DNA of 64,000 nucleotides, taken from contig JAGORL010000002.1 of the NCBI GenBank assembly GCA_018062825.1, forward strand, positions 1,629-65,628, read 5' to 3'. This DNA is from Patescibacteria group bacterium. Its GTDB lineage: Bacteria; Patescibacteriota; Patescibacteriia; UBA9934. Each line of letters opens with the position of its first letter. Positions within the stretch are counted from its first letter, which is position 1. The notes under the pieces were generated by a model. It was not told where the DNA came from. It saw nothing but the letters and a program-made list of their open reading frames with translations, and ran no database searches. This document shows, piece by piece, positions 146 through 56,375 of this stretch. The translations under genes and the position numbers were made by a program.

Positions 146-200
146 GAGAGTCTCCTGAAGTGAAGTGAGGGATCTTGAGGCCCGCATGTCGACATACGAG

Positions 201-308
201 CCAAAACCCCCCACCTCACCTCCGGCCCCAACGTAGTCCGGCTCTGCCGGACGAAGTGGACCTACTCCCTATCCCCTAACCCCTATACCCTATTCCCTAA
301 TCCCTCCC
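201..308 (-). repeat. composite intergenic repeat: conserved hairpin module (227-269) plus C-rich CCCTAA/CCCTAT tract (264-308), G-rich on the sense strand
   Basis: A related copy lies at 38243-38348. The hairpin arm GTCCGGCTCTGCCGGAC differs from GTCCTCAAGGAC in the second copy but keeps its pairing. The 13-mer CCGGCTCTGCCGG recurs at 24594-24606. Confidence 0.6.
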
Positions 309-1074
309 ACATCGCATCAAAGATCATTTCTTGCGTTGACGAAATTGCCTCGTCATCAATCACCGCCCCAAACAACCTGCCATCACTCCCAGCGGAAATG
401 TAGGCCGTCTTCTTGCCGTACATCAGAATGTACGCCGACGAACTTGCACTCGTTGAAAGCCAACGTCGTTCATCAAGGCCATGCTCCGCTCCCCCTGGCC
501 CAATTGCAATCGCCCGTACATGCACCTTGCGTTTTACACGCAAAGCCGTGTAATTCGGCCACGCTTGAGCAATGAGTTCACGAACTTCGGCAGACGAGTA
601 CACGCGATACACGCGCTCAGGCAACAATTCGGCAGTCGAAAGTACATCGTTTAAGATGTCACGAATACCAGCATCGCCTTCGTAGTAGCGCACCGCCGCT
701 CTATGCATCGCAGAGCCGGAAAGTGCTCGCAGCGCCGGAATTGCCGTATCGATCGCTAGTTGCGCCTCTTTAAGCGCCATCTCTTTACGAATGGCGAGTG
801 TACGCAGCTTCTGAGGATCTTCCGCTGTAAAGTACCGATGCGACTTAGCATCAACGTAACTCACCACCCCGGAATCAAGCAGGCGCTTTAAAGCGTCATA
901 CGTCGTACCACGGTTGTAGCCAACCTCCTCAGCGATTCGACGCAGTGGAGCGCTTCCTAGCCGCAACAGGGCAACGTAGATGGCTAAATCCTTCTCAGTT
1001 AAACCAAGAAGGGTTAACGACTGCTTGGAAACTATAGGTGTGGACGACATAGTATGACAAAAATATTCCGACAC
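283..1074 (-). CDS. TrmB-family transcriptional regulator
   Basis: N-terminal winged HTH (LTEKDLAIYVALLRLGSAPLRRIAEEVGYNRGTTYDALKRLLDSGVV) with a C-terminal TrmB-like domain. The last codons GNRV-stop are encoded by the G-rich repeat. Confidence 0.7.
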   Translation of the reverse strand: MSEYFCHTMSSTPIVSKQSLTLLGLTEKDLAIYVALLRLGSAPLRRIAEEVGYNRGTTYDALKRLLDSGVVSYVDAKSHRYFTAEDPQKLRTLAIRKEMALKEAQLAIDTAIPALRALSGSAMHRAAVRYYEGDAGIRDILNDVLSTAELLPERVYRVYSSAEVRELIAQAWPNYTALRVKRKVHVRAIAIGPGGAEHGLDERRWLSTSASSSAYILMYGKKTAYISAGSDGRLFGAVIDDEAISSTQEMIFDAMWEGLGNRV

Positions 1075-8048: not shown

Positions 8049-8103
8049 ATGGAAGGAGTGTAAAACATACGGCGGAATGGCGGAAGGGTAAAGGTGGGAA
8101 GGT

Positions 8104-8460
8104 TTAATGCTTGAAAATCTTTGAATAGCTAGCGATCATGCGTGATAATTTTCGTGAATCATCGAGGCCTTTAGTAAAAGTATCCTGAGAAAAATAACCC
8201 AAATCAAAACCTGCATAAAATAACGAACGAACTTCACCACACGAACCTTTTGCAATCAGTAAATAATTAGCCATGGTTTTAGTTGAATGCGATTCATGAC
8301 CTTCCGCTATATTGTTCATCACCGACAAAGAAGCACGACGCATTTGAGAACGAAAATCACGATCAATGACACTTTTTGTAGAGGAATAAACAAAAGTAAC
8401 AAGCTGCCTAGCCTCTTGCCAGATACGCAAATCTTCGAATGTCTTATATGCCTTATCCAT
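8104..8460 (-). CDS. four-helix-bundle protein (23S rRNA intervening-sequence protein family; Avd-like)
   Basis: 118 aa; RIWQEARQLVTFVY ... MNNIAEGHE ... GSCGEVRSL is characteristic of the TIGR02436-type family. Confidence 0.8.
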   Translation of the reverse strand: MDKAYKTFEDLRIWQEARQLVTFVYSSTKSVIDRDFRSQMRRASLSVMNNIAEGHESHSTKTMANYLLIAKGSCGEVRSLFYAGFDLGYFSQDTFTKGLDDSRKLSRMIASYSKIFKH

Positions 8461-8470
8461 ATCACTAACG

Positions 8471-8547
8471 ACCCCTTCTTGCCCTCCACCTTCACCCCTC
8501 CTCCCTTCACCCTTCCGCCCTTCCTCCTTTCCACCCTTCCGCCCCCA
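8471..8547 (-). repeat. G-rich (sense-strand) purine repeat tract, GGCGGAAGGG / GGAAAGG units
   Basis: Minus strand reads GGGGGCGGAAGGGTGGAAAGGAGGAAGGGCGGAAGGGTGAAGGGAGGAGGGGTGAAGG. It starts at the TAG stop of the upstream ATPase gene. Confidence 0.6.
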
Positions 8548-11579: not shown

Positions 11580-11600
11580 ATAGGCATATTGTAACAGATA

Positions 11601-11634
11601 AACAAAAGAGCACGGACGTCAGGTCGCGTGCTCT
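11601..11634 (-). terminator. rho-independent terminator of cysS (AGAGCACG ... CGTGCTCT + TTTTG)
   Basis: 8-bp stem followed by a U-tract on the minus strand. Confidence 0.75.
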
Positions 11635-11649
11635 TTCTCACACTATCCC

Positions 11650-13038
11650 CTATACCCTATTCCCTTCCTTCACCCTCTGCCCCTCAGCTGTATCCTCAAC
11701 CACAAACCCAAGTTCGGCAATTGCATCACGCAATCTATCTGAAGCTGAAAAATCTTTGTTAGATCGAGCGGCGGCACGTTCATCAAGTAGTGCCTGCACA
11801 CTTGGCGGCACAAGTACCGGTCGCGCGACCACGTCATCAAGCGTCAAACCAAGCACTTCATCAAAAGCCAAAAGAGTAGCGGCTTTAGTCGAACTAACAA
11901 CATTTGCGTCACTAACAAGCTCCCACAAGACCGCCAAAGCCCCTGGCGTATCAAGGTCATCGCTAACGCGTGCCATAAAGCGATCAACGTACCCAGTATC
12001 AGGAGTACTTGGCTTTTCAAGCGTACGAGCAAGATCGATCAAGCGATTTAGTGCTTGATGAGAAGCGCCAAGCGCTTCAAACGTAAAGTTCTGCGGGGTT
12101 CGGTAATGCGCCTGCAAAATAAAGTAACGGAAATCGAACGGGGAAAAACCCTTAGCTTCAAGATCATCAAGAGAGTACGTATTTCCAAGCGATTTACTCA
12201 TCTTGCCGCCATCAACCAGTAAAAACTCATTGTGCATCCAAAGGTTTGCCTCCAAAACTCCACGAGCACCAAGGGTTTGCGCCAACTCATTCTCATGATG
12301 CACCGCAATGTGATCAATGCCACCCGTATGAATATCAAAAGGAACGCCTAAATACTTCTCCCCCATGGCTGAACACTCAATATGCCAACCCGGAAAACCC
12401 TTACCCCATGGCGACTCCCACTCCATATGACGCTTCTCGCCAGCCGGTGAAAACTTCCACAAGGCAAAGTCAGCGGCACTACGCTTACCATCGGTCTCAA
12501 CACGAGCTCCCCCTTCTTTCTCCTCCATCTTCTGCCCAGAAAGCTGGCCGTACTCCGGCAGCTTGGCAACATCAAAATAAATGCCGTCATCCGTGCGGTA
12601 CGTAAAACCATTCTTCTGAAGCTCTTCAACCATGGCAATCTGCTCAGCAATATGATCAGTAGCCTTAGGAATAACGGTTGGCATCAGATTGTTCACTCGA
12701 CGAATATCGGCAAGAAAAAGTTTAGTGTATTCGTCAGCAATATCCCACGCCGTTTTACCCTTCTTCTTGGAAGCAACCTCAAGCTTATCCTCGCCGCTTG
12801 ATGCGTCATCAGTTAAATGACCAACATCCGTAATATTCATGACCGCCGTCACCGCAAAACCATTCTTTTCTAGTGTACGTCGTAAAAGGTCAGCAAAAAT
12901 AAATGATCGCAAATTTCCGATGGAAGCTCGATCGTAAACCGTTGGTCCACAAGAATACATTCCGACCTTGCCCGGTACCTGAGGAGTAAAAATCTCTTTT
13001 TTGCGACCAAGGGTATTGAAAAATGCGATGACATGCAT
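11650..13038 (-). CDS. cysS: cysteine--tRNA ligase
   Basis: YSCGPTVYD, HIGH-like and KMSKS motifs. Start set at the internal Met (MHVIAFFNTLGRKKEIF). The C-terminal GNRV-stop is encoded by the G-rich repeat. Confidence 0.85.
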   Translation of the reverse strand: MHVIAFFNTLGRKKEIFTPQVPGKVGMYSCGPTVYDRASIGNLRSFIFADLLRRTLEKNGFAVTAVMNITDVGHLTDDASSGEDKLEVASKKKGKTAWDIADEYTKLFLADIRRVNNLMPTVIPKATDHIAEQIAMVEELQKNGFTYRTDDGIYFDVAKLPEYGQLSGQKMEEKEGGARVETDGKRSAADFALWKFSPAGEKRHMEWESPWGKGFPGWHIECSAMGEKYLGVPFDIHTGGIDHIAVHHENELAQTLGARGVLEANLWMHNEFLLVDGGKMSKSLGNTYSLDDLEAKGFSPFDFRYFILQAHYRTPQNFTFEALGASHQALNRLIDLARTLEKPSTPDTGYVDRFMARVSDDLDTPGALAVLWELVSDANVVSSTKAATLLAFDEVLGLTLDDVVARPVLVPPSVQALLDERAAARSNKDFSASDRLRDAIAELGFVVEDTAEGQRVKEGNRV

Positions 13039-24565: not shown

Positions 24566-24871
24566 AAATACGGCCTTATCGTCTAGCGGCTATCCGGCAA
24601 AGCCGGACCCGGCTCTGCCGGGGGACGTCATATGTACATCGTCTATATACTTTCGTCCGAAAGCAATAATCGCTGGTACATTGGAATGACTGCAGACATT
24701 AAGGTTCGTTTAGGTGAACACAATGCAGGTCGCGTGCGCTCCACAAAGCCATATGTTCCGTATCGCATTATTTATACGGAAACATATCCAGACAAAACAA
24801 CTGCGCGGAAAAGAGAGATTCAGATTAAAAAATCTGGATTAATCCGCAAGCAGTTAAAAGACAGGATTACC
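24566..24871 (+). mobile_element. 306-bp GIY-YIG mini-element inserted at the 5' end of tRNA-Glu, bounded by 26-bp direct repeats (24566-24591 and 24872-24897)
   Basis: The repeat AATACGGCCTTATCGTCTAGCGGCTA covers the first 21 nt of the tRNA. Two tandem hairpins (TCCGGCAAAGCCGGA, CCCGGCTCTGCCGGG) precede the ORF. Confidence 0.45.
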
Positions 24872-24898
24872 AATACGGCCTTATCGTCTAGCGGCTAG
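24632..24898 (+). CDS. GIY-YIG nuclease family protein (small, YhbQ/UPF0213-like)
   Basis: MYIVYIL ... WYIGMT ... R ... EHN ... motif set. The stop codon TAG lies inside the D-arm of tRNA-Glu. Confidence 0.8.
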   Translation: MYIVYILSSESNNRWYIGMTADIKVRLGEHNAGRVRSTKPYVPYRIIYTETYPDKTTARKREIQIKKSGLIRKQLKDRITNTALSSSG

Positions 24899-24951
24899 GA
24901 CGGCACCCTCTCACGGTGCAGACCCGGGTTCGATTCCCGGTAAGGTCACCA
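24877..24951 (+). tRNA. tRNA-Glu (anticodon CUC)
   Basis: Acceptor GGCCTTA/TAAGGTC (one G-U), anticodon stem GCACC/GGTGC, loop CTCTCAC, T-arm CCGGG-TTCGATT-CCCGG, CCA encoded. Confidence 0.85.
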
Positions 24952-29312: not shown

Positions 29313-29449
29313 AAGTATTTCAAGTACGACAACAAGTATACAAACCTAATGTTTTACGCAAGCCCGGCTTGTCCACAGCGGAACAAAAGGCGCAGATTAA
29401 AGAGTTTGGAGTATAAAGGAAAGTGAAGATAATGAATAGGTGGCCAAGC

Positions 29450-29482: not shown

Positions 29483-29544
29483 GAATATGCCACAGCACCC
29501 TCTTTCTTTAACACTTTTAACTTTAATACTTTAACCCAACAATC

Positions 29545-31452
29545 CTACTGACAAACCGCACACTCTTCCGTGGAGACATCTCGCTTCTGAGATTCCATAG
29601 AGATGCTGTCAGCTTGGATTGGCGCTGAAGAGCGGAAGTAGTAAAGAGACTTCAGACCAAGCTTCCAAGCAAGCAAGTGAACCTCATGCATGTACTTTCC
29701 AGAAACCGGCGTCTGGAAGAAGAGGTTAAGCGACTGCGCTTGATCAATATACGGCTGACGATCAGCAGCTTGCTGAACAAGTTCGCGCATGTTCATCTCG
29801 TAACCGGTACGGAAGATCGCCTTTTCCTCTACAGTAAGGAATTCCAAATTCATAACACTGCCCTTATCAGCGATCACCTTTTTCCAAACATCGGAAGTAT
29901 TCTGTCCCTTTGTTTCCAAGAATGCTTCCAGGTGACGATTCTTTACAAGGAAGCTACCAGAAAGTGTCTTTTGCAAGTACGCATTTCCAGCAATTGGCTC
30001 AATAGCTGGCGTTGCCTCACCACACAAGAACGCTGTTGAAGCCGTTGGCTGAATAGAAGTGACGTAGCTATTACGCTGCGTACCGCCATCAAGCGGCAAA
30101 CCACGCTCTTCACCAAGCTTCACACTTGCCTTGCGCGCTGCCTCACCAAACTTAGTAAAGATTGCCTTGTTAATGTTGCGTGCTTGCAAACTCTCAAATG
30201 GCACACCCTTACTCATGAGGTAACCGTGATAACCCATGGTACCAAAACCGATGGAGCGTTCGCTCTTCACCGAGAAGATCGCTTTTTTGTACTCCTTCGG
30301 ATCAGCCATGTCGAGGAAGGTCTCGAGGTTGTTATCAAGACCCTTTACCGCTGCATAACAAATGTCATCGATCTGATCAGAAAACTCATCCCAACGCTCA
30401 AGGTTGATAGAAGCCAAGCAGCACACTGCCGTACGATCGTTATCGGTTGGCAAAACAATCTCCGTACACAAATTAGACTGACGAACCTGCAAACCTTTCT
30501 CTTTGTGATGCGGAGGAATGAACTTATTTACTGTATCAATGAACAAAAGATACGGCTCACCACTTTCAGCGCGCATGGAAAGAATCTTGCGCCACATGGT
30601 AACGGCATCAAGCTCCTTGGTGACCTTCTTGAAGTGTGGATCGATCAATTGGTACGTAGTGCCCTTCTCAACCGCTTCCATGAAGGCATCCGTAATAGTG
30701 ATACCAATGTTGATATTCAAAGTCTTACGATCTTGATCGCCACCGGTTGGCTTACGAACTTCCAAGAAGTCCTCAATATCTGGGTGATCAATACGCAAGT
30801 AGGCCGCTGCCGCACCACGACGAACACCATTACGAGCAATCGCGATCGTTTCCGAATCCATGATCTTCAAAAACGGAATAACGCCGGAAGACTTCAAGCC
30901 GGAAGAGATAAGCGGCGCATCCATACCGCGCAACTGCGACCAATCAGTACCGATACCACCACCGTACTTAGCAAGAAAAGCATTCTCACGGAAAACATCA
31001 AAGATACCACCAAGATCGTCTGGAACGGTGTTCAGGAAGCATGAAATCGGCAAACCCTTCTTGGTACCAATGTTCATGAGTGTTGGCGATGACGGCAAGA
31101 ACCAGTTCTTACTCATGATGTCATACAGGTACTGGGCATGCTGCTTGTCACCACGCGCCATACCGATCGCAATGCGCGCAAAAAACATCTGCGGATCCTC
31201 AATCACCTGACCAGCAACGTTACGCAAGGCATAACGATCACGGAAGTTCTCAAGGCCAAAGTAGGTAAAGTTGGTATTACGCTCTGGGGCAAGAACCAAA
31301 GACTGCTGAGCCTCTTTGTATTCCTGCATGTAATACTCAGAATCCCAACTGCCTTTGCCAGCTGTGCTCGCTAAAATTTCACCAAGTAAGATATTGCGCG
31401 CCGCCAAGAGATCGTTAGCACTCAAAGCGTCGATAACTGATGCGTAATCCAT
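29545..31452 (-). CDS. nrdA: ribonucleoside-diphosphate reductase alpha subunit (class I)
   Basis: Large-subunit core with a C-terminal CAVCQ redox pair. Confidence 0.9.
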   Translation of the reverse strand: MDYASVIDALSANDLLAARNILLGEILASTAGKGSWDSEYYMQEYKEAQQSLVLAPERNTNFTYFGLENFRDRYALRNVAGQVIEDPQMFFARIAIGMARGDKQHAQYLYDIMSKNWFLPSSPTLMNIGTKKGLPISCFLNTVPDDLGGIFDVFRENAFLAKYGGGIGTDWSQLRGMDAPLISSGLKSSGVIPFLKIMDSETIAIARNGVRRGAAAAYLRIDHPDIEDFLEVRKPTGGDQDRKTLNINIGITITDAFMEAVEKGTTYQLIDPHFKKVTKELDAVTMWRKILSMRAESGEPYLLFIDTVNKFIPPHHKEKGLQVRQSNLCTEIVLPTDNDRTAVCCLASINLERWDEFSDQIDDICYAAVKGLDNNLETFLDMADPKEYKKAIFSVKSERSIGFGTMGYHGYLMSKGVPFESLQARNINKAIFTKFGEAARKASVKLGEERGLPLDGGTQRNSYVTSIQPTASTAFLCGEATPAIEPIAGNAYLQKTLSGSFLVKNRHLEAFLETKGQNTSDVWKKVIADKGSVMNLEFLTVEEKAIFRTGYEMNMRELVQQAADRQPYIDQAQSLNLFFQTPVSGKYMHEVHLLAWKLGLKSLYYFRSSAPIQADSISMESQKRDVSTEECAVCQ

Positions 31453-31503
31453 AGCAGATGTACTCCTCTTTAATCTTTTAACTTTAATCTTTGCTCTGAA
31501 ACC
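31453..31503 (-). repeat. A-rich GATTAAAG repeat spacer between nrdB and nrdA, ending in RBS AGGAG
   Basis: Minus strand reads AAGATTAAAGTTAAAAGATTAAAGAGGAGTACATCTGCT-ATG. Confidence 0.5.
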
Positions 31504-32499
31504 TTAGGTCCAATCCTCAAGCACCGAACCCTTTGAATACTCCGTGGCACGCGCTTCAAAGAAGTTTGCATGCTCCTTAGCGTTCACCATGACATCAAGC
31601 CATTCAAGTGGATTGGTAACGTTGTACATGGCATCAAGCCCCAGGTCATGCAACCGGCGATCAGCAATGTAACGGATGTACTGCTTCACTTGCTCAGGCT
31701 GCAAACCAGGAACCGCACCCTTTGAGAAACAGGTATCAATGAAGGCATCCTCAAGTTTCACCATGTCGTTACAAGCCGCGTACAGCGTATTTTGAAACTC
31801 CTTGGTCCAGAGGTAACGATTCTCAGCGATCAAGTCACGGAAGAGGTGACAAACGCCCTTGCTGTGCAGCGATTCATCACGGATGCTCCATGTCACAATC
31901 TGACCTACACCCTTCATCTTTCCCATGCGTGGGAAGTTCATCAAAATGGCGAACGAGGAGAAAAGTGACACGCCCTCCATGAAACCTCCAAAGACTGCAA
32001 GGTTCATGGCCAGCTCTTCAACGTTATGTACGTTGAACTGCTGAACGTAATCGTACTTTGCCCTCATGGATTCATACTCCAGGAAAGCTGAGTATTCCTT
32101 CTCCGGAAGCCCGAGCGAATCATTCAAATAGGAATAGGCCCAAACGTGTATCGATTCCATGGCCGCAAAGGCCGACAGCATCATTTTAATTTCAGGTTTT
32201 GGAAAGGCCGGGATGAGGTGCTGGTTGTAATTATTATTCACCTCAATGTCTCCTTGGGTAAAAAAGCGGAGAATGTTGATGATGAGGTTTGATTCCTCAG
32301 GCGTGAGACGGAATCGATAGTCCGCAATATCACTTTCCATTGGCACCTCAGTTGGCAACCAATGCGCCTGATTTTGCTTCTGAAAATATTCGTAAAAATG
32401 TGGGTACTCAAACGGTCTGTAAAACGATCGGGATTGAAAGAGTGTTGATGGCTTGCCGGCAGCAGTCGAGACCATCTGTTGAATCGATGTTTGGTACAT
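31504..32499 (-). CDS. nrdB: ribonucleoside-diphosphate reductase beta subunit
   Basis: Ferritin-like di-iron protein (MESIHVWAYS ... EGVSLFSSF). Confidence 0.9.
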   Translation of the reverse strand: MYQTSIQQMVSTAAGKPSTLFQSRSFYRPFEYPHFYEYFQKQNQAHWLPTEVPMESDIADYRFRLTPEESNLIINILRFFTQGDIEVNNNYNQHLIPAFPKPEIKMMLSAFAAMESIHVWAYSYLNDSLGLPEKEYSAFLEYESMRAKYDYVQQFNVHNVEELAMNLAVFGGFMEGVSLFSSFAILMNFPRMGKMKGVGQIVTWSIRDESLHSKGVCHLFRDLIAENRYLWTKEFQNTLYAACNDMVKLEDAFIDTCFSKGAVPGLQPEQVKQYIRYIADRRLHDLGLDAMYNVTNPLEWLDVMVNAKEHANFFEARATEYSKGSVLEDWT

Positions 32500-38138: not shown

Positions 38139-38213
38139 ACGCTGTATATTGTAACAGATGAGAGGTGAGGATTCGGAGTTCGAGGTTCGGGGTTTTGAAC
38201 ATGTTAAATAAAA

Positions 38214-38242
38214 GCACCCGACTTTCATCGAGTGCTTTTTTT
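38214..38242 (-). terminator. terminator-like hairpin (GCACCCGA-CTTTCA-TCGAGTGC, 1 mismatch) with T-runs on both sides
   Basis: Follows the ugd gene and the repeat element on the minus strand. Confidence 0.55.
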
Positions 38243-38348
38243 AAACTCCCAACTCACCAGCCCCAACGTAGTCCTCAAGGACGAAGTGGAGCTACTCCCA
38301 ACTCTTAACTCTTAACTTTAATCTTTTCACTTTACTCTTTAATCTCCA
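38243..38348 (-). repeat. composite intergenic repeat, copy B: A-rich GATTAAAG/GTTAAGAG tract + conserved hairpin module (38261-38299)
   Basis: Minus strand reads GGAGATTAAAGAGTAAAGTGAAAAGATTAAAGTTAAGAGTTAAGAGTTGGGAGTAGCTCCACTTCGTCCTTGAGGACTACGTTGGGGCTGGTGAG. An inverted partial copy lies at 38162-38197. Confidence 0.6.
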
Positions 38349-39572
38349 CTACGGCCTTGCATCCACAAACGGGATACGAGAAGCGCTTGGATCACGAAGT
38401 TCTGCAAAGTCTGGCCAGTCCGTAGCAATAACAGCTACCTGGGCACTTTGGAGCGCCTCAGGAATACTCTCTACAAAAACTACGCTTGGATACAACGTGG
38501 TCAAACGCGTAGCTGGCGCTGGATCATACACGCGCACCAAAGCTCCGCGCCGAAGCAACTCTTCCATAAGAAAAATCGCTGGTGATTCACGCACGTCATC
38601 GGTTCCCGCCTTAAACGCCAAACCAAACTGAGCCACCACAACGCCAGCAAGAGATCCGCCAGCAGCTTGAGCAATCTTGTCTGCGTAATACGAAATACGA
38701 TCAGCGTTAACGCTATAGGCAGCGCTCAGAATACTCGTTGGCGCCGAAGCCTCTACCGAAAACCGCTGAAGCGCCCGAACATCTTTTGGAAAGCAACCAC
38801 CACCCCAGCCAAGACCGTATCGCAGAAACTTCTTGCCGATACGATCGTCAAAACCCAGTGACTGCAAAACCGCCGCCGGATTTGCACCAACCGCCTCGGC
38901 AATGCGTGAAAGCTCATTCGCGTAACTCACCTTCACCGCTAAAAATGCATTCGCAGCATATTTACTCATCTCAGCAGAAGCGCAATCAAGCGCCACATAC
39001 GGCGTACCGCTCTCAATCCAAAAGGCATACACCTGACGTAGTAACGCATGGTCCTGTTCATTCAAAGCACCAACCACAATCCGACTCGGCTCACGAGCAT
39101 CACGTAACGCGGTTGATTCTGCTAAGAACTCAGGATTAGTCGCTACCGCATACCCGCCAAGCTGCGCCGACAAAGCTGCAGCAGTACCAGGGGGCGTCGT
39201 TGACTTCACAACAAGGAGCGCATTCTGCGGCAACCTTGCTACACTCCACAAAGCAGCTGACTCAAGAATCGAAAGATCAGCCGAGCCATCCTCGCCAGAT
39301 GGCGTTGGTACACACAAAAATGCTACCTGTGCAGTAAGCGCACCAACACCCTCAGGAACATCATCAAGCGCCGCGAATTGCAACCTACCTGTAGCAAGCG
39401 CCGTCTGCAGCGCCTCAGTAAAACCTGGCTCATGAAACGGCACCTCACCTCGTTGAAACGAAGCGACGCGTTCAATGTTGTTGTCAAAAGCAATAACACT
39501 ATGACCGGCTTCAACAAGCACTACTGCCATAACCGCTCCCACCCAACCCGCACCAACAACTGCAATGTCCAT
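38349..39572 (-). CDS. UDP-glucose/GDP-mannose dehydrogenase family nucleotide-sugar dehydrogenase
   Basis: N-terminal GAGWVG Rossmann fold, catalytic GGGCFPKD. Start set at MDIAVVGAG. Confidence 0.8.
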   Translation of the reverse strand: MDIAVVGAGWVGAVMAVVLVEAGHSVIAFDNNIERVASFQRGEVPFHEPGFTEALQTALATGRLQFAALDDVPEGVGALTAQVAFLCVPTPSGEDGSADLSILESAALWSVARLPQNALLVVKSTTPPGTAAALSAQLGGYAVATNPEFLAESTALRDAREPSRIVVGALNEQDHALLRQVYAFWIESGTPYVALDCASAEMSKYAANAFLAVKVSYANELSRIAEAVGANPAAVLQSLGFDDRIGKKFLRYGLGWGGGCFPKDVRALQRFSVEASAPTSILSAAYSVNADRISYYADKIAQAAGGSLAGVVVAQFGLAFKAGTDDVRESPAIFLMEELLRRGALVRVYDPAPATRLTTLYPSVVFVESIPEALQSAQVAVIATDWPDFAELRDPSASRIPFVDARP

Positions 39573-41309: not shown

Positions 41310-41378
41310 AAGTGAAAACAGGTGAATAAGAAACTACACTTATGACTTCCGAATTACAACATAGGACAGAAAAAATAA

Positions 41379-41432
41379 TGGAGATTAAAGATTAGAGTGG
41401 AAAGTGGAAAGAGTAAAGGAAAAACGTGGGGA
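41379..41432 (+). repeat. purine-rich GGAGATTAAAGATTAGAGTGGAAAGTGGAAAGAGTAAAGG tract (plus-strand orientation)
   Basis: Same repeat family as 38300-38348, but in the opposite orientation relative to the flanking genes. Confidence 0.45.
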
Positions 41433-55826: not shown

Positions 55827-56311
55827 AAGATTCTCCACTAGCCTACTTTCTTGTTGGGATGGCCTGTACCATCGCTATTGTGAACTGGGTAATTGCTCCC
55901 CGGATTACCTCTCTATTTCCCAAACAAGTAGCCAGCTTTGAAGCCGGATCGGTCAAAGTAAATGATACGGATTACGCTGTCCTCATTGCCGAAACCAATC
56001 TCCAGCAGTCCCAAGGCTTATCAGGGCAATCACTAGGTACATTTGAATATGAAGGCATGTATTTCGACTTCGACACCACTGAGGAACGAACCTTCTGGAT
56101 GAAAGACATGCTCTTTGCCCTTGATATCTTCTGGATCCGTGATGGCGTAATCGTAAAGCATGAAGCCAATATTCAAATCCCACAAGAAGGCGAAGAACCA
56201 CGCACTATGGTGTCAGATCCAGAAGCCACCGACGCCGTCCTAGAAATGCCAGCAGGCTCCGCGGAAAGACTAGATATCAACGTAGGCGATACCGTGGTGA
56301 GAAATTTTTAG
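55823..56311 (+). CDS. DUF192-domain protein
   Basis: N-terminal TM; MLFALDIFWIRDGVIV core. The stop TAG is followed by GGGGGTAGGAAG. Confidence 0.6.
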   Translation: MKDSPLAYFLVGMACTIAIVNWVIAPRITSLFPKQVASFEAGSVKVNDTDYAVLIAETNLQQSQGLSGQSLGTFEYEGMYFDFDTTEERTFWMKDMLFALDIFWIRDGVIVKHEANIQIPQEGEEPRTMVSDPEATDAVLEMPAGSAERLDINVGDTVVRNF

Positions 56312-56345
56312 GGGGTAGGAAGTAAAAAGTAGGCACCAGTACAAA

Positions 56346-56375
56346 AAAGCACGCGACCAAAAGTCCGTGCTTTTG
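56346..56375 (+). terminator. terminator (AAGCACG-CGACCAAAAGTC-CGTGCTTTT)
   Basis: Read directly. Confidence 0.6.

Follow-up and report, generated by a model that had tools for sequence, protein, structure and literature searches.

Genomic setting of the repeated module

The stretch of DNA analysed here, referred to as the window, spans 64,000 nucleotides of a Patescibacteria group bacterium contig, and most of its genes are located on the minus strand. Going by the names given to homologous proteins, its nearest affinity within Patescibacteria is to Candidatus Uhrbacteria. Two of the intergenic regions harbor a copy of the same short module, termed copy A and copy B (Table 1). Copy A is located 3' of a gene for a TrmB-like regulator (stop at 283) and 5' of a DUF218 gene, and copy B 3' of a UDP-glucose dehydrogenase gene and 5' of a LOG/TIGR00730 gene. 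All four flanking genes are encoded on the minus strand and are thus co-directional at either locus; each copy is found past the stop codon of the preceding gene, with a large RNA hairpin or terminator following it. No tRNA gene was found beside either copy.

Table 1 Coordinates of the module copies and neighboring features in the window.
Feature	Position	Strand	Basis or description
Copy A	224..265	-	Pattern match, minimum-free-energy fold, alignment with copy B, covariance model
Copy A GUAG	265-262	-	Foot of the palindrome
Copy A outer helix P1	262-256 paired with 232-231 and 228-224	-	Fold; bulge 230-229
Copy A internal loop	255-253 / 235-233	-	UUC / UAC; fold
Copy A inner hairpin P2	252-236	-	GUCCGGC-AGA-GCCGGAC
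Shared extension by copy A	207..223	-	GGAGGUGAGGUGGGGGG; homologous to GGUGAGUUGGGAG; also 5' arm of the long hairpin
Long RNA hairpin directly 3' of copy A	156..225	-	Ends just ahead of AGGAGA and GTG (145)
C-free purine tract, end of TrmB-like ORF to copy A	270..313	-	Family D3; GGGAUUA GGGAAUA GGGUAUA ..., 7/14-nt period
Twin hairpins	24593..24622	+	TCCGGC-AAA-GCCGGA and CCCGGC-TCT-GCCGGG, upstream of the GIY-YIG ORF
Copy B	38258..38295	-	Pattern match, fold, alignment, covariance model
Copy B GUAG	38295-38292	-	Foot of the palindrome
Copy B outer helix P1	38294-38286 paired with 38267 and 38265-38258	-	Fold
Copy B internal loop		-	UUC / UAC; identical to copy A
Copy B inner hairpin P2	38282-38271	-	GUCC-UUGA-GGAC
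Shared extension by copy B	38245..38257	-	GGUGAGUUGGGAG; read from sequence and local alignment
Long-range stem 3' of copy B	38164..38258	-	38258-38243 with 38181-38164; encloses terminator-like hairpin 38214-38236
C-free A/G/U tract, UDP-glucose dehydrogenase stop to copy B	38300..38352	-	Family D1; AGAGUUA AGAGUUA ...

The structures that follow the two copies are strongly asymmetric with respect to strand. More specifically, the 70-nt hairpin 3' of copy A has a predicted energy of -50.4 kcal/mol (z -7.8) on the minus strand and -23.9 kcal/mol (z -2.3) on the plus strand, a specificity that stems from its many G-U pairs. The long-range stem 3' of copy B reaches -38.6 kcal/mol (z -5.3) on the minus strand and -31.7 kcal/mol (z -2.5) on the plus strand. 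Given this minus-strand specificity of the adjoining hairpins, the region is designed for the sense RNA. The DUF218 gene likely starts at the GTG at 145, where AGGAGA serves as ribosome-binding site; the public gene call places the start at 214, within the long hairpin, and yields a protein of 208 aa, compared with 186 aa in relatives.

In relatives, the position that matches 156..225 is occupied by another long hairpin. Directly after the TrmB-like stop, a long hairpin is found here (152-227) as well as in two other loci, L036 (5470-5520) and L035 (9870-9920), with the position kept and the sequence not. Between the latter two, one stem shows a compensatory pair (GCUCCCA/UGGGAGC in L035, GCUUCCA/UGGAAGC in L036).

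On its other side, each copy is preceded by a repetitive tract. The one ahead of copy A has a UAG every 7 nt and therefore presents stops in all three frames, and 23 nt of it are 96% identical to 11643-11665, a site that is not followed by a module. The tract family ahead of copy B recurs at 29507-29536 and 31468-31511, again without the module. Since the tracts beside A and B come from two different families, both of which also occur on their own, the module is a separate unit.

Tracts of this kind, 30-60 nt without C on the sense strand and with a 7- or 14-nt period (GGGAUUA..., AAAGAUUAAAGUUA...), are present at many gene ends and leaders (270-313, 11631-11678, 29394-29443, 29496-29549, 31461-31492, 38300-38352, 41368-41424 and 56294-56333). 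They contain UAG or UAA about every 7 nt, so that every reading frame meets stops, and two families of them recur with 80-96% identity. The TrmB-like protein, whose end (window 283-294) runs into the heptad tract, for this reason exceeds every relative by 3 residues (…WEGLGNRV versus …WESLG).

The terminator hairpins at 11607-11635, 38214-38236 and 56349-56371 resemble each other (AAAAGCAC...GUGCUUUU), and two of them share GCACGCGACC-NNNN-GUCCGUGC. A promoter-like string, TCTGTTACAATAT, follows two terminators on the minus strand, at about 11586-11599 and 38147-38160.

Extent and number of the copies

Pattern matching on the plus strand retrieved the frame CCCCAACGTAGTCC-hairpin-GGACGAAGTGGA(C/G)CTACTCCC exactly twice in the window, at 226-269 and 38261-38299, with 0 matches expected from shuffled sequence. 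The two copies described in the earlier note are thus borne out, and the repeat itself is real. Copies A and B share 14 + 21 bases of the frame with one difference (35/36 framed bases identical), and the only base differences between them are G at 224 versus A at 38259 and C at 261 versus G at 38291, read on the plus strand.

Neither half of the frame gave an extra match in the window when 2-3 mismatches were allowed. The proposed search for further copies covered 72.7 kb of the contig: nhmmer and a covariance model run with filters off returned no third copy in the window and none in the 8.7 kb of contig past it. The covariance model scored copy A at 79.1 bits and copy B at 66.9 bits. The sequence of copy B is identical in two further assemblies of the same organism.

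On one side, the similarity continues for about 13 nt past the frame as first described, as GGTGAG[G/T]TGGG on the minus strand (p = 0.07 against shuffles in a local alignment). The other flanks of A and B are alike in composition only, and beyond the extension the resemblance is no greater than that of shuffled sequence, which delimits a repeated unit of about 40-60 nt that is separable from its surroundings. Furthermore, the 11-mer GAGTTGGGAGT occurs at 38245-38255 and again at 38294-38304, forming a perfect 11-nt direct repeat around a 38-nt segment of copy B (38256-38293). At copy A, the counterpart of this repeat is imperfect and no clean target duplication is seen; the surrounding tract is itself repetitive.

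Fold and anatomy of the module

Read on the minus strand, both copies follow the scheme GGGA-GUAG-[G/C]UCCAC-UUC-GUCC(GGC)-loop-(GCC)GGAC-UAC-GU(U)GGGGC[C/U]. According to fold and alignment, each forms an imperfect palindrome of 38-42 nt made up from an outer helix (P1), an internal loop and an inner hairpin (P2). The outer helix comprises 7-9 bp and includes G-U pairs, which are available on the minus strand only, with C-A mismatches taking their place on the plus strand. The stability of the core fold is ordinary compared with shuffled sequences (z -1.0 to -2.3). GUAG lies directly 5' of P1 in both copies. In the minimum-free-energy fold, only its last G pairs in copy A, and the U, A and G are pairable in copy B; with three of four bases able to pair, the tag is not clearly unpaired in copy B.

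The inner hairpin rests on a 4-bp base, GTCC/GGAC, that is common to both copies, and the copies differ in what it carries: on the plus strand the tip is GGC-TCT-GCC (GGCTCTGCC) in copy A versus TCAA in copy B, a 9-for-4 nt replacement. What had been read as compensatory stem substitutions is therefore a replacement of the whole tip, and a selection on structure deduced from it is not supported by just two sequences. Both single-base differences fall in the outer helix, a feature absent from the earlier note, where each copy preserves its 7-9 bp with a one-base register shift. The maintained helix is suggestive, a hint from two sequences that for this reason does not amount to statistical covariation.

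The GIY-YIG/tRNA-Glu locus and the shared hairpin

The 13-mer CCGGCTCTGCCGG is found at 238-250 in copy A and at 24609-24621, within the second of the twin hairpins. Its exact recurrence, as claimed earlier, stands; the position given for it, 24594-24606, holds the neighboring CCGGCAAAGCCGG, which has the same stem and a different loop. The adjacent GIY-YIG ORF (24632-24898, 88 residues, PF01541) terminates within a tRNA-Glu(CUC) gene (24877-24951). A 26-nt exact duplicate of the tRNA upstream sequence and 5' part lies 5' of the ORF (24567-24592 = 24872-24897), and the twin hairpins are located between this duplicated tRNA-Glu 5' fragment and the ORF.

Three GIY-YIG homologues, 65-70% identical, were found on other Patescibacteria contigs, all ending within a tRNA-Glu(UUC) gene. 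The four loci extend over 24567-24951 in the window, 2930-3324 in L029, 1603-1994 in L039 and 1721-2166 in L040, and at each the stop codon of the 88-aa GIY-YIG gene lies inside the 5' part of tRNA-Glu. All three homologous loci have twin hairpins inside the upstream tRNA-Glu 5' fragment, with order and position altered in L040. Across the four loci, the D-loop region of the fragment is interrupted by the twin hairpins, and the stems of TCCGGC-NNN-GCCGGA and CCCGGC-NNN-GCCGGG are invariant with variable loops. As a whole, the locus looks like a conserved homing cassette that targets tRNA-Glu and has a structured left end.

The hairpin of copy A combines the stem of the first twin hairpin with the loop of the second. 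The window has only 11 GC-rich hairpins of 6 bp, 3 of which are of the twin-hairpin type, and in all loci examined, non-coding occurrences of the motif are confined to the GIY-YIG/tRNA-Glu loci and copy A; in viral contigs, the pattern retrieved GC-rich coding repeats only. The shared 13-mer is a real relationship and not a chance match. This relationship is limited to the hairpin tip of copy A, since copy B is a complete module that lacks a CCGGC hairpin. When the covariance model was applied to the GIY-YIG locus, only the 15-nt hairpins scored (12.7 bits, E 0.7).

A second, fainter resemblance concerns the plus-strand start of the module, GGCCCCAACGT, which is similar to the 5' end of tRNA-Glu(UUC), GGCCCCATCGT (p about 0.05, uncorrected). 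The hairpin follows within 2 nt of GGCCCCAACGT, as it does in L040. The resemblance is absent when the window's own tRNA-Glu(CUC) is used for the comparison.

The earlier note had raised the idea that the GIY-YIG nuclease mobilises the module. At the borders of the nuclease gene lie the 26-nt tRNA-Glu repeats and the twin hairpins, not the module, and the hairpin of copy A is all that is shared, none of it being present in copy B. A co-occurrence of module and GIY-YIG gene, suggested as a check, was not seen: no module was found in the L029, L039 and L040 loci, a weak comparison that covers 3-6 kb around each. GIY-YIG mobilisation of the module is thus unsupported.

Free-standing GIY-YIG homing endonuclease genes are found beside tRNA genes elsewhere, for example SegB of phage T4 (PMC2330249); the window gene likewise sits at a tRNA gene, its target sequence is duplicated, and it shares a hairpin with copy A. 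Such a system concerns a nuclease gene and its tRNA target and predicts no dispersed 40-nt palindrome. The module lies beside neither a tRNA gene nor a nuclease gene.

A separate cassette of another kind is present in the window at 8071-8545. It consists of an ORF of 118 aa (8104-8460, minus strand; PF05635, '23S rRNA intervening sequence protein'), located between a coupling-protein-like gene and dnaX and flanked by G-rich/C-rich inverted repeats (8071-8107 with 8491-8527, 78% complementary) with an 11-nt perfect core, GGCGGAAGGGT/ACCCTTCCGCC. It is thus IVS-like and located outside rRNA.

Relatives and public collections

Among the loci examined, L010, L057 and L036 are the closest relatives, and they keep the gene order. 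The spacer between the UDP-glucose dehydrogenase and LOG genes measures 211 nt here versus 87 nt in L010 and 50 nt in L057 (LOG protein identity to the window 88% and 69%, respectively), and the module is absent from both. Between the TrmB-like and DUF218 genes, the spacer measures 137 nt here versus 65 nt in L036 (TrmB 70% identical), where it consists of a hairpin beginning at the stop codon and has no module. The covariance model found no module in about 105 kb of the relatives' DNA.

A pattern scan with CAACGTAG-N6-36-CGAAGTGGANCTAC, whose 21 fixed bases make it blind to diverged relatives, was run over 185,579 GTDB species genomes, metagenome contigs and viral contigs and returned chance matches within coding regions only; in the genome and metagenome contigs, these fell in methionine aminopeptidase-like and phage genes. 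BLASTN of the core against phage and plasmid collections gave no match. Given its absence from relatives and collections, the module looks specific to this species, and because the orthologous spacers lack it, it was probably gained here, with loss in the relatives as the other possibility.

Readings that were set aside

Several familiar classes did not describe the module. As a known RNA family it found no counterpart: Rfam 15 gave nothing relevant around either copy at the gathering score or up to E = 10, and the window's matches above the gathering score are two tRNAs. A hammerhead ribozyme was considered for the plus-strand GUAGUCC...GGACGAAG, which resembles stem II, and rejected for the absence of the CUGAUGA/GAAA core and of an Rfam match; a K-turn or sarcin-ricin motif was rejected since no GA/AG tandem is in place. 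A template/variable repeat of a diversity-generating retroelement does not fit flank differences that are not adenine-specific, nor a window without a reverse transcriptase. The copies are not attL/attR of an island, since the genes to either side of copy B keep their order in L010 and L057 and the 38 kb that separate A from B consist of housekeeping genes. A TrmB operator would be expected to show a TACT...AGTA-type dyad, which is missing, and the site lies downstream of the regulator gene, an argument from inference only. A small ORF is incompatible with the 5-nt difference in hairpin length, which shifts the reading frame.

The terminator of copy B was also considered as an orthologue of that in L010. 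The terminators of this genome are all alike, with 16-17/22 matching hairpin positions between non-orthologous ones (hand counts), and orthology can therefore not be claimed.

Discussion

REP families usually comprise tens to hundreds of copies per genome, often arranged as dimers or clusters, and a cognate RAYT/TnpA-REP (Y1 HUH transposase) gene is found in the genome, flanked by REPs. GTAG-tagged REPs are described as palindromes or imperfect palindromes of 20-40 bp that end in GTAG and mostly have stems of 6-9 bp (PMC3733652). The E. coli-type family has non-complementary di- or trinucleotides between its stem and a self-complementary loop, and variants of this loop coexist, including those with GGC/GCC termini (PMC3733652). 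The G-T pairs of REPs suggest a function as RNA, and most REPs lie 3' of ORFs where the neighboring genes are unidirectional or convergent (PMC3733652).

The module closely follows this description, for example that of the E. coli-type GTAG-3 (Di Nocera et al. 2013, PMC3733652; Corneloup et al. 2021, PMC8266576): a small, imperfectly palindromic unit of about 40 nt with a GTAG foot, an outer stem of 7-9 bp, non-complementary trinucleotides ahead of a self-complementary inner 'loop', inner-loop variants that include GGC/GCC termini, and G-U pairs on one strand. Both copies are likewise extragenic, 3' of ORFs and between co-directional genes. Unlike REP families, the module was encountered as two singletons in 72.7 kb, with no head-to-head or tail-to-tail dimers; its tag is partly pairable in copy B; and its host has a reduced Patescibacteria genome. 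Our literature search found no paper reporting REPs in Patescibacteria, and the genes of the 64-kb window include neither a Y1/HUH (Y1_Tnp) nor any other transposase (Pfam lists and scans).

The 'REP-like structured element' of the earlier note therefore remains the best fit, on account of the GTAG foot, the small size and imperfect palindrome, the extragenic position and the variable inner hairpin. We propose, at slightly less than even odds (roughly 0.45), that the module is a small REP-type extragenic palindromic repeat in an Uhrbacteria-like Patescibacteria genome. The term REP-like is probably apt as far as published anatomy and location go, and denotes a probable rather than a proven member, given that two copies were found in 72.7 kb and no RAYT gene among those of the window. 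The repeat is species-restricted, was probably acquired recently and resides in transcribed 3' regions.

MITE-like repeats that are transcribed into mRNAs, such as ERIC, Correia/NEMIS and RUP, measure 100-160 nt. The module resembles them as a short, non-coding, intergenic insertion that folds as sense-strand RNA, and the 11-nt direct repeat at copy B may be a target duplication of the kind seen with MITEs. It differs from them in its 38-60 nt, in terminal inverted repeats that are simply the hairpin stem, in the lack of a clean duplication at copy A and in that no cognate IS element was seen.

Some of the same features can be read differently. The module may be a selected cis-acting RNA element, for instance a site bound by an RNA-binding protein or an RNase in a 3' UTR or intercistronic region, that tunes the flanking genes, with near-identical cores that reflect purifying selection and not recent copying. 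A core identical at 35/36 positions between flanks without significant similarity, an outer helix that stays intact despite both base differences, the sense orientation with its G-U pairs, the identical UUC/UAC internal loop and the same placement directly upstream of a large RNA hairpin at both loci all point this way. An old functional element should, however, be shared with relatives of 69-88% protein identity, and it is absent from their orthologous sites; Rfam yields no match even at E = 10; and the flanking genes (TrmB-like/DUF218 versus UDP-glucose dehydrogenase/LOG) are functionally unrelated. Moreover, the gene downstream of copy B apparently has its own TGnTACAAT promoter past the element and its terminator, which makes control of that gene by the module unlikely. 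Taken together, we consider a regulatory element rather unlikely.

We also regard it as unlikely that the module is a functionless duplication, in which ectopic recombination or a template switch during repair produced a single extra copy of a short segment too recently for the two to diverge. Two nearly identical known copies in one species and an unremarkable fold stability are what such an event would leave behind. The replacement of 9 by 4 nt at the tip with all else identical would be odd for a single recent copy, however, and a chance duplication does not readily account for two sites of the same kind with the same orientation to transcription, or for a GTAG and bulged palindrome that match a known class of mobile repeat.

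An origin from the GIY-YIG/tRNA-Glu element, or servicing by it, appears improbable. In that case the module would be a decayed or miniature left end, composed of a tRNA-Glu 5' fragment and a YCCGGC-NNN-GCCGGR hairpin that the nuclease recognises. The composite hairpin of copy A, the scarcity of its type (3/11 GC-rich hairpins in the window), the invariant stems and variable loops at four independent loci, the confinement of non-coding occurrences to these loci and copy A, and the likeness of GGCCCCAACGT to GGCCCCATCGT with a hairpin no more than 2 nt after it argue for such a link. Against it, copy B is a full module without the CCGGC hairpin, which is hence not integral; the tRNA resemblance is marginal and disappears with tRNA-Glu(CUC); and the nuclease gene has tRNA repeats and not the module at its borders. 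A second, diverged GIY-YIG protein was not returned from the assembly by a word-indexed protein search, tRNA genes adjoin neither copy, and we know of no GIY-YIG enzyme that mobilises REP-like hairpins. Its most specific form, a miniature non-autonomous derivative with a tRNA-Glu acceptor-like stem and the signature YCCGGC-NNN-GCCGGR hairpin, recognised and dispersed or maintained by the 88-residue nuclease, is very improbable; if true, it would constitute a REP/RAYT-like partnership with a GIY-YIG enzyme in place of an HUH transposase.

Under the preferred reading of a REP-type repeat, the module would have dispersed by the same route as the single-stranded DNA hairpins of REP families, with a RAYT (Y1/HUH transposase) or similar activity presumably encoded elsewhere in the genome. 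The GGC...GCC tip of copy A would be a loop variant, most likely copied from the twin hairpins of the GIY-YIG/tRNA-Glu locus by template switching or gene conversion. As RNA, the module may add a stem-loop to the 3' region of the transcript that could act as an exonuclease barrier or processing site, with any effect on the transcript probably modest.

The consequences are small, since the repeat has two copies, is species-restricted and is without demonstrated function. A true REP family would nevertheless broaden the range of GTAG-tagged palindromic repeats to include the reduced genomes of Patescibacteria, and would mean that an organism with hardly any DNA to spare has a hairpin-processing transposase or something equivalent to it. 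Of wider use is a by-product of this analysis, the conserved twin-hairpin/tRNA-Glu arrangement at the small GIY-YIG gene.
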